Part shown: one piece after another, positions 1,814 to 51,414 of the stretch
How positions within the stretch are numbered: the first letter of the stretch is position 1
Layout: each line of letters starts with the position of its first letter
Source of the DNA: a virus
DNA: 64,000 bases
Direction: 5' to 3' (one strand)
IMG/VR virus record: IMGVR_UViG_3300027763_002499
Location: 26,549-90,548 of that record
Translations under genes and position numbers: made by a program
The notes under the pieces: generated by a model
Database searches by the model: none
Told to the model about the DNA's origin: nothing
The model's input: the letters and a program-made list of their open reading frames with translations, nothing else

Positions 1814-2152
1814 TTAAAATGGCATAGAAGGTGAAAAGCTACTGCCACACCCACATGTTGTTTGAGCATTTGGATTATCAATTACAAAGCGACTGCCTGT
1901 AATATCATCTTTAAAATCAATGACTGCTGAGGATAGATATTGCATACTCATTGAATCAACTAGAATCTTAACACCATCTTGTTCTAATTCAAAATCATCT
2001 TCGTTTTTTTCTTCGTCAAATGTAAAGCCGTACTCCATACCGCTACATCCACCACCTTGTACAAAGATACGTAATGGTAAGCTTGCATTGCCCTCATCAA
2101 TGGCAATTTCTCTAACTCTGTTGATTGCTGAATCTGTAATTTTAATTTGCAT
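1814..2152 (-). CDS. erpA: iron-sulfur cluster insertion protein (A-type carrier, ErpA/IscA family)
   Basis: [17 protein letters not shown] and [14 protein letters not shown] motifs. Confidence 0.92.
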
Positions 2153-2360: not shown

Positions 2361-2640
2361 TTATATGTTCCCCATATATTAATTTAGCAAAAATAGCATC
2401 ATGCTCTTGCTCGAACAACATATAAGGCTTAGATTCTTGGTTAGGTCCTGCTTCAAACGCCCAGCCGCTCCAACCATGTGACTTTTCAACACAATCATCA
2501 ATCATGAGCCCGGGAATTCCATCACCCTCTAGCTGTATAGCCCATACCTGGCTTGGTTTATCAGAGTCAAGTACAGAAAACACTTGATAGAAGCTGGATA
2601 ATGGCACGTTCTTGATCACGCAAACAAGTCCTCGTTCCAC
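2350..2640 (-). CDS. hypothetical protein (start uncertain)
   Basis: ORF fills the gap downstream of queD. Confidence 0.55.
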   Translation of the reverse strand: MERGLVCVIKNVPLSSFYQVFSVLDSDKPSQVWAIQLEGDGIPGLMIDDCVEKSHGWSGWAFEAGPNQESKPYMLFEQEHDAIFAKLIYGEHINVN

Positions 2641-3119
2641 TCGCGATGGCCTTCGCGGAAAGCCATATTACTTTGTGTTTCTCTAACTTCAACCCGATAG
2701 CACCACAAGCGAGCCGCTTCACCTGGTCCCCACATCTCAGGAATATAAACTCCGTTAACATATTTGTACAACATGTCACTGAGACCTTCACAGCCTAATT
2801 TAGGAAGCACAACTACTTTTGCCATCTTCTTTTCTACTAACAAATTGTATGTTTCCATTTCCGGATCATCTTGCGCTACAATAAGTGTATGATCAAACTG
2901 GTCTTCTAACGTCTTTTTAAGTTCTTTAAGTCCTCCATAGTCTGCCGCCCAGTTACGAACGTCCAGATCATTGGTTCCGAAATAGAACTTCATGCTAAAT
3001 GAATAGCCGTGGATTAGATTGCAATGGCTATCTGCTCTCCACTGTCGGTAAGCGCATGGAAATGCGTCATGGTACTCTTTTGTACTTGTGTATTTGTATA
3101 CAACTGGTTGTAATGCCAT
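2616..3119 (-). CDS. queD: 6-carboxytetrahydropterin synthase (QueD/PTPS family)
   Basis: SHCNLIHGYSF, DYGGLKELK, FDHTL and terminal VEVRET motifs. Confidence 0.88.
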   Translation of the reverse strand: MALQPVVYKYTSTKEYHDAFPCAYRQWRADSHCNLIHGYSFSMKFYFGTNDLDVRNWAADYGGLKELKKTLEDQFDHTLIVAQDDPEMETYNLLVEKKMAKVVVLPKLGCEGLSDMLYKYVNGVYIPEMWGPGEAARLWCYRVEVRETQSNMAFREGHREWNEDLFA

Positions 3120-3124
3120 CTTAT

Positions 3125-3195
3125 TCTCCTATGTTAAATTATAGCATAGGCTTGCAGAATTTGTATAGCGGGATGAATGCCAGAAAGGCCGCTGT
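3125..3195 (-). ncRNA. preQ1-I-like riboswitch candidate in the queD leader
   Basis: minus strand AGCGG-17 nt loop-CCGCU stem, then AUACAAA tail, then CCUAUG/CAUAGG hairpin covering the AGGAGA RBS. Confidence 0.55.
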
Positions 3196-3203
3196 CATAT
3201 TTA

Positions 3204-3788
3204 TTAACGATTTCTTAGTTCGTTAATACCTAATGCTTTAAATGCTCGCTGAACGCCAACCAACTGACTCCAACAATCCCAAAGTGCGTGGTGAGCGGCT
3301 CCCTGTGGTCGTTCAAGTCCTGGTACAAGTGCATATAAAGTTCGTGCATCACGGGCTTGCCAGTAGTTCCAAGCAACTCCACGTTTTAATTCTCTACTAA
3401 AGTGTTCAAGTATGTTCAAGTCAAATCCAGTGCCATTGGCCCATATTGCATCAATGCCTCCACACCACTTGTGAAAGTCTCGCAAAACATCTTGTATACT
3501 GTGCCTATCATCTTCAGCAAATGCTTCTGCTCTAACTTCTTCGTTTTGGTTACCCCACCATGCTAATGTGGCATCATCAATAACATGATCTAATCCTTCA
3601 AAACTTTCAAAGCTAACACGACGATAAAATGTATCCATAGTCTCCATTGGATTATCTGTGTCATCTGCAAAAGGGTTAAAACGAATTGCGCCAATAGTAA
3701 GCATTAAACTATTTGGCTTTGTACCAAGTGTCTCCAAGTCAACCATAACGTGATTGCCCGGCGCTCGGATGTTCATTTCATTTGCCAT
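3204..3788 (-). CDS. DEDDh 3'-5' exonuclease/exoribonuclease (Rv2179c-like)
   Basis: VMVDLETLG, WANGTGFD, RDART, HHALWD motifs. Confidence 0.85.
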   Translation of the reverse strand: MANEMNIRAPGNHVMVDLETLGTKPNSLMLTIGAIRFNPFADDTDNPMETMDTFYRRVSFESFEGLDHVIDDATLAWWGNQNEEVRAEAFAEDDRHSIQDVLRDFHKWCGGIDAIWANGTGFDLNILEHFSRELKRGVAWNYWQARDARTLYALVPGLERPQGAAHHALWDCWSQLVGVQRAFKALGINELRNR

Positions 3789-5175: not shown

Positions 5176-5640
5176 TTATTCTTCTACCTTGTTAATTGTA
5201 ATTCCTGCTTGCTTTAAAAATACAATGCCGGCTTCACTTCTATAATTATCCCGATAAAACACCTGTTTAATACCACTTTGGTATATCAATTTAGCACATT
5301 CAATACAAGGTGCATGGGTAACAAAGATTACTGCATTTTCAGATGACTCTGGACTACGTGCTACCTTTGCAATGGCATTTGCTTCTGCATGAAGAACTTC
5401 AGGTTTGGTTACCAGTTCTCCTGTCTTGACTAGTATAGAACCAACACCATACTCGGGCTGGATTTCAGTTACTTCATCTTCACAGTTGTTGTCCCAACCA
5501 CTGGGCATTCCATTATAACCAATGCTAATGATCCTGTCATCTTTAACTACAATAGCACCCACTTGCAGTCGTCTAGCTGTGCTGAGACGGGCATAAGTAC
5601 CTGCCACTTCCATGTGTGCTTTGATGTATTTGGGTTTCAT
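5176..5640 (-). CDS. dCMP deaminase (ComEB-like)
   Basis: VGAIVV..IGYNG, HAEANAI and APCIEC zinc motifs. Confidence 0.92.
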   Translation of the reverse strand: MKPKYIKAHMEVAGTYARLSTARRLQVGAIVVKDDRIISIGYNGMPSGWDNNCEDEVTEIQPEYGVGSILVKTGELVTKPEVLHAEANAIAKVARSPESSENAVIFVTHAPCIECAKLIYQSGIKQVFYRDNYRSEAGIVFLKQAGITINKVEE

Positions 5641-5694: not shown

Positions 5695-6261
5695 ATGATT
5701 GTTTATATCCACGGCGCTAGTGCTACAGGTGAAAGTTTCAATTACATTCGCCAAAACATCAAAATTAAGGACCTTGTACTAGAATACTCGAGTTCAAGTG
5801 GTTTTGAAAACAATTTAATTAAAATGGAAAAGTCCATTGAATCATGTGACAAGATATTTTTTATTGCACATAGTTTAGGTGGAATATATGCGCTTCATTT
5901 GGCAAATCGTTTTGCAGGTGAAGTATTGGGTGGTGTTACTCTTAGTACACCATATGGCGGCTGTATTCAAGCCGATTATGCAAAATACTTCCTGCCATTT
6001 AGCAGACTCATGCGTGACATTGGCACAATGAGTCGCCCAATGAGTGATGTAGCAAAAATTCCAGCCCCTAACAATTGGACCAACATTGTCACCACTGTAG
6101 GCAAGAGTCCTTGGATACTTGAACCAAACGATGGTGTTGTTACAATTGATAGTATGCGGGCCAGGCAAGACATAGAACTAATTGAAATGTCACTAAACCA
6201 TTACGAAGTTGTGTTGAGCAATGATGTAATTAAAATAATCAAAGACCGAATAAAAAATTAA
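5695..6261 (+). CDS. alpha/beta hydrolase
   Basis: YIHG, AHSLGG nucleophile elbow, NDGVV, NHYEV. Confidence 0.85.
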   Translation: MIVYIHGASATGESFNYIRQNIKIKDLVLEYSSSSGFENNLIKMEKSIESCDKIFFIAHSLGGIYALHLANRFAGEVLGGVTLSTPYGGCIQADYAKYFLPFSRLMRDIGTMSRPMSDVAKIPAPNNWTNIVTTVGKSPWILEPNDGVVTIDSMRARQDIELIEMSLNHYEVVLSNDVIKIIKDRIKN

Positions 6262-25995: not shown

Positions 25996-26802
25996 TTATT
26001 TACAAATGGCCCTCTTTGCGTTGGTCAAAGCACCAAAATCCACGGCCCACTCTGATCCAACAGCTAGTTCCTTGGCACCTGTTGGATATTCATATTTTAC
26101 CCCGGCTTCCTTTTGTATTTGTGCAATTGGAGAACGGAATTTAGTAAGGTCATTGCCTAGATTAACATATGGTTTGGTATGTGGGAATTTCCATCCAGCC
26201 ATTTCCTTAGTAGCATTGTTAATTACAATTTTATAATAACCGTGTGGGACAATAACCTTACCCGGACCTATAAATTCATCGCCTGATCCATAGAATGCAC
26301 CTACATAAATTGTATAAGGTTGATTATGTTGTACAGCCCAACCACGAATACTAGTTTCTAACAATTTCCAAATACCACGATTTAGACTGCCGTGTTGTGG
26401 ATACATGTTGGTCATTAGGAAACTTTCGTACTCTACTTGTTCACTCCAAGATAAGTCACCATCTGGAGCGGCATGGCCCTTGTCATAGCCTGTACCAGCA
26501 TAGTCATCTGGCTTTGCACCGTTGGGAACTGATTTGTCTGCTACAAAGGCATTTGTGCGTGGCCAGCAACCTAATGCATTTTTTGGAAGTAGCGTATAAC
26601 TTACATACGCTGGAATTTTAACAGGTGCATCATAAGCAACCAAATATGCTTCACGGCAAATTGGTTTTGCATCTCTGGTTGTTTCAGCAAAACCATATGG
26701 GGCATGAACTTTACATGCGGCAAGTGGCAATGGCGCACGTTGTTCCCATGCATGTGATATGTTAGCAAAAAATACAAGTGCTAAGACGAGTAATCGTTTC
26801 AT
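25996..26802 (-). CDS. DNA/RNA non-specific endonuclease (NucA/EndoG family) with signal peptide
   Basis: MKRLLVLALVFFANISHA signal; YDKGHAAP, MTNMYPQ, LNRGIWK.LE. Confidence 0.9.
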   Translation of the reverse strand: MKRLLVLALVFFANISHAWEQRAPLPLAACKVHAPYGFAETTRDAKPICREAYLVAYDAPVKIPAYVSYTLLPKNALGCWPRTNAFVADKSVPNGAKPDDYAGTGYDKGHAAPDGDLSWSEQVEYESFLMTNMYPQHGSLNRGIWKLLETSIRGWAVQHNQPYTIYVGAFYGSGDEFIGPGKVIVPHGYYKIVINNATKEMAGWKFPHTKPYVNLGNDLTKFRSPIAQIQKEAGVKYEYPTGAKELAVGSEWAVDFGALTNAKRAICK

Positions 26803-51204: not shown

Positions 51205-51414
51205 TTACGCTTCAACATCTTTCTTCTTTCGGGTGCGCTTTGGTTTTTCTGCCGCGCCTTCCACACCTGCAATGGCTTCGCGCACATCACGTAGTAAGGC
51301 CTCATCATCCCACTTTAACTCTGTACGCCCATTTGGATAGGTTGTTACTGTAAGGTGACTGCCCTTAACAATCACCGCATCGGTAACTTCTGCAAGTTTC
51401 TTTTTTGTAGCCAT
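51205..51414 (-). CDS. hypothetical protein
   Basis: 69-aa ORF. Confidence 0.65.
   Translation of the reverse strand: MATKKKLAEVTDAVIVKGSHLTVTTYPNGRTELKWDDEALLRDVREAIAGVEGAAEKPKRTRKKKDVEA

Follow-up and report, generated by a model that had tools for sequence, protein, structure and literature searches.

A conserved leader pseudoknot of preQ1-I-like architecture, and candidate translational ON switch, ahead of PTPS/QueD-family genes in uncultured freshwater phages

Introduction

The leader of a PTPS/QueD-family gene in an uncultured lake phage raises the question of which kind of RNA precedes this gene and how it might act on its expression. The gene lies in a window of 64,000 nucleotides (nt), positions 26,549 to 90,548 of the IMG/VR virus record IMGVR_UViG_3300027763_002499, which spans 90.5 kb and is estimated to be 27% complete. 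On the minus strand of the window, an exonuclease gene (3788-3204) is followed by a gap of 84 nt (3203-3120), which contains the leader, and by the PTPS-family gene (3119-2616). An original prediction, made from the letters of the window, read the gap as a preQ1-I-like riboswitch in front of a phage queD. Its observation is confirmed in part by the analysis presented here, and its interpretation is partly supported. The leader pseudoknot is conserved in hundreds of contigs from uncultured freshwater phages, and a real structured RNA is almost certain. The favored reading, with a probability of about 0.55, is that of a small-molecule riboswitch acting as a translational ON switch.

Structure of the leader pseudoknot

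As predicted from its sequence, the leader RNA is an H-type pseudoknot of about 45 nt, composed of a P1 helix of 5 base pairs (bp), a loop L1, a second helix P2, a UC junction and an A-rich L3. The features of the leader, including the Shine-Dalgarno (SD) sequence of the downstream gene, are the following.

3198-3205, minus strand: late-promoter-like box AATAAATA, a putative promoter that shares bases with the stop codon of the preceding gene and has its end 4 nt ahead of P1
3189-3193, minus strand: 5' strand of P1, AGCGG, pairing with 3171-3167
3188-3172, minus strand: loop of 17 nt between the P1 strands, CCUUUCUGGCAUUCAUC
3182-3188, minus strand: L1, CCUUUCU, with a conserved start N-C-U-U and a length that varies in relatives (alignments A1, A3 and A5)
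3174-3181, minus strand: 5' strand of P2, GGCAUUCA, pairing with 3156-3149 through 6 standard pairs with 2 mismatches
3172-3173, minus strand: junction UC before the 3' strand of P1; the C is invariant, stands at the place of the preQ1-I specificity cytosine and may contact a ligand
3167-3171, minus strand: 3' strand of P1, CCGCU, pairing with 3193-3189
3166-3151, minus strand: tail after the 3' strand of P1, AUACAAAUUCUGCAAG
3157-3166, minus strand: L3 tail with conserved A's, AUACAAAUUC; A, A, A, U and C are invariant in alignment A1
3149-3156, minus strand: 3' strand of P2, UGCAAGCC; its last two C's (3150 and 3149) are the first two bases of hairpin H1
3128-3150, minus strand: hairpin H1, CCUAUG (3150-3145) with CAUAGG (3133-3128), which masks the SD; -5.7 kcal/mol
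3138-3146, minus strand: TGCTATAAT, an extended -10-like element in the H1 loop, from a promoter scan
3126-3130, minus strand: SD AGGAG, which ends 6 nt before the AUG

Every string quoted in the original prediction is found on the minus strand (3193-3125), and the CCUAUG...CAUAGG hairpin that it placed over the ribosome-binding site is present over the SD. The proposed pairing of loop CUGGCA with tail UGCAAG gives standard pairs at 5 of 6 positions. As the register of P2, however, this pairing clashes with the covarying C-G and A-U/G-C pairs beside the junction and uses U3156, G3155 and C3154 differently from the covarying helix. It was rejected because the junction-side pair shifts from A-U to G-C in several lineages. 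The supported register joins GGCAUUCA with UGCAAGCC and consists of the pairs G3181-C3149, G3180-C3150, C3179-G3151, U3177-A3153, C3175-G3155 and A3174-U3156, with mismatches at A3178/A3152 and U3176/C3154. P2 covers 8 positions in the window and from 7 to about 10 in relatives. The alternative UGGC/GCCA, which uses the conserved GC of CUGC, fits a few leaders (that of the relative L040 and that of a second, divergent copy of the element in another, L007), is not conserved across the platform types described below and was discarded. The top P1 pair, G3189-C3171, is G-C in all distinct rows of both alignment sets (56/56 and 77/77), and the three Cs at 3172-3170 are invariant in alignment A1.

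Conservation and covariation

The fold is counted as real because of comparative evidence, not because of the fold of the single sequence: the minimum-free-energy structure of the window leader lacks P1 (z = -0.51) and 57 of 200 shuffled sequences fold at least as well. At least 594 relatives of the downstream protein are present in IMG/VR, of which the best 80 loci, 89-98% identical in protein, were used. The leaders of these loci diverge much more than the proteins, yet share the motif. With a covariance model based only on P1, the window leader scores 69.7 bits (E ~1e-21) and 78 of 81 sources match, with one copy in each, apart from the second copy in L007. The three sources that do not match (L057, L071 and L079) are cut at the 5' end and start within a few bases of the gene. 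A second sample, drawn by a core sequence pattern and not by the protein, contains the motif in 84 of 85 sources and yields 77 distinct rows, 64 of which are new. Each of five large phage records has one copy.

Pairs were counted in the first set after refitting its alignment with P2 as a modelled helix (56 distinct rows). P1 is paired in 99.3% and P2 in 88.7% of cases, with double-sided changes at 4/5 and 4/7 pairs, respectively. Altogether, 93.3% of the cells pair in this set, compared with 32.3-46.7% when the partners are slid. The second set (77 rows) gives 93.8% overall, 98.7% for P1 and 89.9% for P2, with double-sided changes at 9/12 pairs. Across both sets such changes occur at 8-9 of the 12 pairs, 4-5 of the 7 in P2, slid partners pair in 31.6-47.5%, and the observed values are reached by 0/500 shuffles in either set. 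Covariation across phage queD leaders, which had been proposed as a check, is therefore found in both helices. Since the alignments were fitted by covariance models they lean toward structure, a point to be set against these percentages; an untuned count on the earlier, P1-fitted alignment A2 still gives 90.3% paired. The numbers of distinct rows, and of new rows in the second set, also argue against an artefact of one clonal lineage.

The changes can be followed by eye. P1 exchanges AU/UA, GC/CG and CG/AU/UA, as in AGCGG/CCGCU, AGAGG/CCUCU, ACCGG/CCGGU, UGCGG/CCGCA, UCCGG/CCGGA and AGUGG/CCACU, and P2 appears as GGCA/UGCC, GGCG/CGCC, GACGC/GUGUC, GGCAU/AUGCC, ACGUCAU/AUGUCGU and AUGGCAU/AUGUCAU. 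About 20 unpaired positions, on the other hand, show little or no variation among leaders that differ freely at their paired positions (alignment A1).

The searches run here found the element in viral contigs alone. The core pattern (14 bases) occurs in 120 stretches of 596 Gb of bacterial and archaeal genomes, and the 80 listed among these 120 reach at most 21 bits, the best with an imperfect P1, and look like chance matches, compared with 44-71 bits in phages. A second model match in the window (51291-51334, plus strand, 10.3 bits, E 0.11) lies antisense inside an open reading frame (ORF) of 69 amino acids (aa) and was dismissed.

Genes behind the pseudoknot

The gene that follows the leader in the window is the following.

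2616-3119, minus strand: QueD-like PTPS-family gene, 167 aa, AUG at 3119-3117; Pfam PF01242 1.9e-15, PHROG 2389 'QueD-like' 4.5e-35

The Pfam match places the protein in the PTPS fold family. Its score against the NCBIfam QueD equivalog TIGR03367 is 34.2 bits and does not reach the cut-off of 89.25. QueD (6-carboxytetrahydropterin synthase) has the motif Cys-x3-His-Gly-His plus a first His. In alignment A4, the window protein keeps the Cys and the middle His, whereas two positions at which four canonical-type phage QueD sequences have His are occupied by Tyr. Judged from these residues and scores, the protein is a divergent PTPS-family paralog, well under the equivalog cut-off. The name queD that the gene had been given is thus correct only in part, and is based on the gene context in relatives.

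The association of the RNA with this gene family is close. Among the viral contigs, 80 pattern matches were listed, one of which is a chance match. A PTPS-family gene is the first or second gene downstream in 78 of the 79 genuine matches, and the remaining one is cut by the end of its contig. The gene follows directly in 71 of 79 according to the ORF caller, and in four more on inspection. In three instances a small gene stands first, encoding an 85-aa unknown protein, a 112-aa cupin or a 243-aa unknown protein, and the PTPS gene follows. The cupin (L355, 6409-6747, minus strand, PF07883 3.2e-11) lies between pseudoknot and PTPS gene in a locus that continues with a DAHP-synthetase-family gene, KdsA-like by reading; the 243-aa protein (L367, 4432-5160, plus strand), in the same position, has no NCBIfam match.

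Several PTPS subgroups stand behind the motif: the 168-aa type of the window, a 141-aa type with His at the two positions that are Tyr in the window protein, and homologs 33-40% identical to the window's. One relative (L008) has a single motif ahead of both PTPS paralogs in tandem. Tandem Tyr-type and canonical QueD-like forms behind one leader are seen in L008, L228, L235 and L250. Among the loci found with the canonical-type 141-aa QueD, the motif is present in 10/80, and because the other 70/80 lack it the RNA is considered lineage-limited and not general to phage queD. The second copy in L007 (1876-1924, plus strand, 37.7-43.5 bits), with P1 changed to ACCAG/CUGGU, follows a HIT-family gene and precedes the gene of a class I methyltransferase-like protein of 309 aa.

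Other genes of the pathway occur near the motif in the five large records. A folE gene is found within a few kb in 3/5 and a queE-like gene in 2/5, in L367 directly after the PTPS gene. For QueC, there were only weak partial PP-loop matches, in 2/5. TGT/DpdA was found in 0/5; these records are all 27-58% complete, and this absence thus proves nothing. Among the INPHARED phage records no annotated relative of the leader was found, the single match being a coding stretch of 193 nt in the PTPS gene of a Dinoroseobacter phage.

Relation to known RNA families

According to the available parts of two sources, class I preQ1 riboswitches are H-type pseudoknots with a strict specificity cytosine before the 3' strand of P1, on a G-C floor, and are further defined by a uridine of L1 and an adenine of L3 (PMC11625349, PMC10622847). 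Type I is described with UC before the 3' strand of P1, UU atop the 5' strand of P1 and a C in the A-rich tail (PMC11625349, in part).

The phage element shares with preQ1-I (RF00522) the H-type pseudoknot with a 5-bp P1 and a loop-to-tail P2, both covarying, the A-rich 3' tail and the position ahead of a queuosine/deazaguanine-pathway gene family. It also appears to share the invariant G-C atop P1 and the invariant C, preceded by U, before the 3' strand of P1. The original prediction had named the 5-bp P1, the loop-tail helix and the A-rich tail, and all of them hold, the tail starting with (A/U)UA. The phage P2, in contrast, is roughly double the length, with an internal mismatch that is conserved; the P2 of preQ1-I has 3-4 pairs. 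The phage L1 is longer (N-C-U-U plus 0-6 nt) and lacks the UU start of type I, and the tail has an extra conserved UCUGC before the variable part of P2. Compared position by position in sequence, L3 has its invariant A's, the UU of L1 is displaced by two bases, and the tail C is present in type A leaders and replaced by U or A in others. The phage SD lies outside the aptamer, the 3' strand of P2 overlaps the strand that masks SD or AUG, and the arrangement reads ON.

Membership in a preQ1 family was looked for with Rfam 15. The scan gave no match at E<=10 to the preQ1 models or to any other in 2900-3400 (501 nt) or in 3125-3205 (81 nt), and 0 matches at gathering thresholds over the whole 64 kb. 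Sixteen related loci gave no preQ1 family and three chance matches to eukaryotic families. In the most compact relative (L315), a narrow scan gave four matches below threshold. One of them is PreQ1, with P1, UCCC and the tail aligned at 10.7 bits (E 4.9), far under the gathering score of 39. The RNA is therefore preQ1-I-like in architecture, closest to type I, and is not a demonstrable member of the family.

A divergent class I preQ1 riboswitch that binds preQ1 or preQ0 and represses queD would account for the shared architecture, for the sub-threshold alignment in L315 and for the gene family. This explanation is nevertheless improbable. The Rfam results of the window and of the 16 relatives speak against it, as well as the P2 of 7-10 positions, the longer L1 and the roughly five extra conserved bases of the tail. 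Moreover, the SD is neither in nor beside P2, which overlaps the anti-SD strand instead, and the strategies described in the available part of the preQ1 review only occlude the SD (PMC11625349).

The preQ1-II and preQ1-III classes (RF01054, RF02680) are also pseudoknotted and have SD/anti-SD platforms, in class III away from the pocket (PMC11625349, in part), but theirs is the HLout type of pseudoknot, ~80-100 nt in length and built of at least four helices. A preQ1-II match in L315 (10668-10698, plus strand, 14.5 bits) covers the flanks only, with the 69-nt core deleted, and is not real. The preQ1-II model aligns the type-A platform through the -10-like UAUGCUAUA string and AGGAGAA..AUG, and automated annotation could mis-call it.

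In T4-like aquatic phages, a glutamine riboswitch and a psbA-associated candidate have been described, as a rare feature (PMC9004378, in part). These are likewise metabolite-sensing leaders, but as described there they copy cellular classes, whereas the new element is without a cellular counterpart among the matches listed. No description of the element was found in the literature; supplementary lists of candidate motifs (e.g., PMC5737381) could still contain one.

Expression platforms and switching direction

The pseudoknot is combined with different expression platforms, in all of which P2 has a competitor.

Type A (the window's), 32 distinct leaders: the SD is masked by CCUAUG/CAUAGG, the two C's of which form the end of the 3' strand of P2
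Type B, 15 distinct leaders: GAUGGCA at the start codon is the partner of the 3' strand of P2, AUGUCGUC
Type C, 11 distinct leaders: G(C/U)CAUUG pairs with CAAUGGC
Variant before a canonical QueD (L229): CUC of the P2 strand stands against GAG of the SD

In the free ensemble of types A, B and C, about 3-4 bases of the 3' strand of P2 are paired to the SD-AUG region. The SD itself is outside the aptamer, ~19-20 nt past the end of P2. The openness of the ribosome site was estimated in a partition-function model in which P1 was forced and both P2 strands were blocked, so that the values describe a held pseudoknot whose energy was not computed. Under this treatment the SD openness of type A rises from 0.25 to 0.78, and the lower of the SD and AUG values rises from 0.03 to 0.33 in type B and from 0.00 to 0.42 in type C. 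In the window, P2 alone contributes -0.8 kcal/mol, against the -5.7 of H1; the pseudoknot would therefore need stabilization from outside, as a ligand would supply.

The ON reading follows from the overlap of the 3' strand of P2 with the strand that masks SD or AUG, together with the opening of the SD by the held pseudoknot in the model. When P2 is not formed, its 3' strand would pair downstream; in the window, the two terminal C's would join CCUAUG/CAUAGG and bury the SD. When the pseudoknot is formed, presumably stabilized by a small ligand at the P1/P2 junction, these bases would be withdrawn and the ribosome site would open. The resulting logic would be that of a translational ON switch for the PTPS/QueD-family gene. 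The original prediction had implied repression; the hairpin that buries the ribosome-binding site competes with P2 and is not promoted by it, and the wiring reads ON. The adenine-sensing add switch is also a translational ON switch in which the 3' strand of the aptamer competes with the SD-masking helix. The logic of strand withdrawal is the same, while the fold (a three-way junction against an H-type pseudoknot) and the ligand are unrelated.

Promoter-like boxes and transcript position

A promoter-like box ends 3-12 nt before P1 in 53 of the 60 scorable distinct leaders. Thirty of these 60 have TAAATA/TAAGTA and 23 have TTGNNN-N16-18-TANNNT. In the pooled set, 104/131 leaders have a promoter-like box before P1, and the platform goes with the box: type A is mostly late-like (51/73) and type C sigma-70-like (18/20). 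The late promoter box of T4-like phages is given as TATAAAT (PMC9004378, in part). The position of the boxes suggests that the pseudoknot lies at or near the 5' end of the mRNA.

Leaders of relatives are represented in contigs of two metatranscriptomic libraries, one contig of run X20 spanning 2944-3195. Library contigs cannot show transcript starts, DNA may be present in RNA libraries and uncovered parts are uninformative; the contigs are thus compatible with a transcribed leader, and no more. A contig of run X19 (record 15) is identical to the window over 3120-3193 (74 bases) and differs in both flanks, with another TAAATA-type box and a different gene start. The leader may accordingly move between gene contexts as a unit, to judge from this one contig.

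The promoter scan of the window also gave TATACA-18-TATAAT with an upstream TG (10/12), the site that contains the extended -10-like element of the H1 loop. TGnTAnnnT is kept in 28/32 distinct type-A leaders, with hexamer positions 1, 2 and 6 kept and positions 3-5 varying. These observations, and the missing single-sequence fold signal, could be taken to mean that the conservation acts at the DNA level, in the form of a promoter, TATACA-18-TGCTATAAT, or of a terminator for the upstream gene, or that the fold arose by chance. Such an origin is extremely unlikely: a promoter cannot explain compensatory changes in two helices, the -10-like hexamer is missing from types B and C, which have the aptamer all the same, the scan called no terminator-like site, and P1 is not followed by a U-run. 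The RNA and an internal promoter may exist side by side, but the promoter would not take the place of the RNA.

Metabolite sensing or ligand-independent leader

Ligand binding, the identity of the ligand and the direction of switching are what we infer from the evidence set out above, and several points weigh against a ligand-driven ON switch. The freed AUGCUAU of type A (3147-3141) can pair with AUGGCAU (3119-3113) at -4.0 kcal/mol. The AUG openness in the window stays at 0.03-0.06 with the pseudoknot held, and the lower of the two openness values, SD or AUG, averages 0.13 over type A, down from 0.24. Because of this re-pairing of the AUG, the ON behavior is not clean for type A. That the pseudoknot was emulated by blocked bases is a further caveat. 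Plausibly, TGCTATAAT inside H1 could act as an internal promoter and give transcripts that bypass the switch. The natural guess for the ligand is a 7-deazapurine, pterin or guanine-like compound of the pathway; an ON switch on a biosynthetic gene suits a precursor or demand signal better than preQ1.

Covariation proves structure and not ligand binding, and the main rival is a leader that works independently of a ligand, as a 5' pseudoknot that protects the mRNA, as a temperature-tuned element or as the operator of a phage or host protein. T4-type phages use leader pseudoknots as protein operators, and ligand-free H-type pseudoknots also have conserved L3 adenines and junction bases. The element begins a few nt from the predicted transcript start, which is apt for a stabilizing 5' structure, and the in-silico openness of type A is mixed. 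Against this stand the ~20 near-invariant unpaired positions, typical of a pocket. In addition, three platforms and one variant, different in sequence, all overlap the same strand of the aptamer. The RNA also tracks the PTPS family across paralogs that are 33-40% identical, which fits a metabolite of the enzymatic step better. On this evidence a ligand-independent leader is judged rather unlikely, and a small-molecule translational ON switch remains the favored reading.

A more specific model can be proposed tentatively. The element would be a new riboswitch class on the preQ1-I scaffold, known so far from phages alone, and would sense a compound of the deazapurine/pterin pathway or a precursor such as GTP or dihydroneopterin triphosphate. 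It would turn translation ON, which sets it apart from all preQ1 riboswitches described. It would time or meter the synthesis of precursors of modified DNA bases in jumbo phages, with an internal-promoter bypass in type A.

Other genes of the locus

The gene upstream of the leader belongs to the context and is outside the element.

3204-3788, minus strand: Rv2179c-like 3'-5' exonuclease; Pfam PF16473 2.9e-35, PHROG 255 exonuclease

An iron-sulfur cluster insertion protein of the ErpA/IscA type (1814-2152, minus strand, NF010147 1.8e-48) is encoded downstream, three genes after the queD-like gene. L008 has the same ErpA/IscA-type gene and an ORF judged from its translation to be superoxide-dismutase-like. 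A run of large paralogous radical SAM genes extends over 28287-48856 of the window (minus strand). The record has nine PF04055 matches, on one strand and within ~20 kb, and relatives carry 1-13 such genes. Of the 10 ORFs scanned, 4 also have a SPASM domain, which is N-terminal (residues ~8-80) and precedes the radical SAM core, in a domain order opposite to the usual one. For so many radical SAM enzymes, an Fe-S helper encoded by the phage would be of use. A dCMP-deaminase-family gene (5176-5640, minus strand, PF00383 4.5e-22) has a sigma-70-like site (11/12) just upstream (5675-5647) and adjoins a divergent ORF of 188 aa (5695-6261, plus strand).

Significance

Riboswitches are a rarity in phages, and the reported ones copy cellular classes (PMC9004378, in part); the aptamer-like pseudoknot presented here is without a match in Rfam 15. 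It accompanies a single enzyme family of the 7-deazaguanine/pterin route, and among the matches listed no cellular copy is convincing. With an aptamer of ~45 nt the element is easy to test, and its natural variants are ready-made compensatory mutants. In other phages, the 7-deazaguanine pathway feeds the modification of DNA bases. If metabolite binding is true, the element would add a new pair of ligand and RNA, built on the smallest riboswitch scaffold known, would be a relative that activates in a family of which only repression is known, and would offer a direct view of the control that phages exert over the 7-deazaguanine/pterin pathway.

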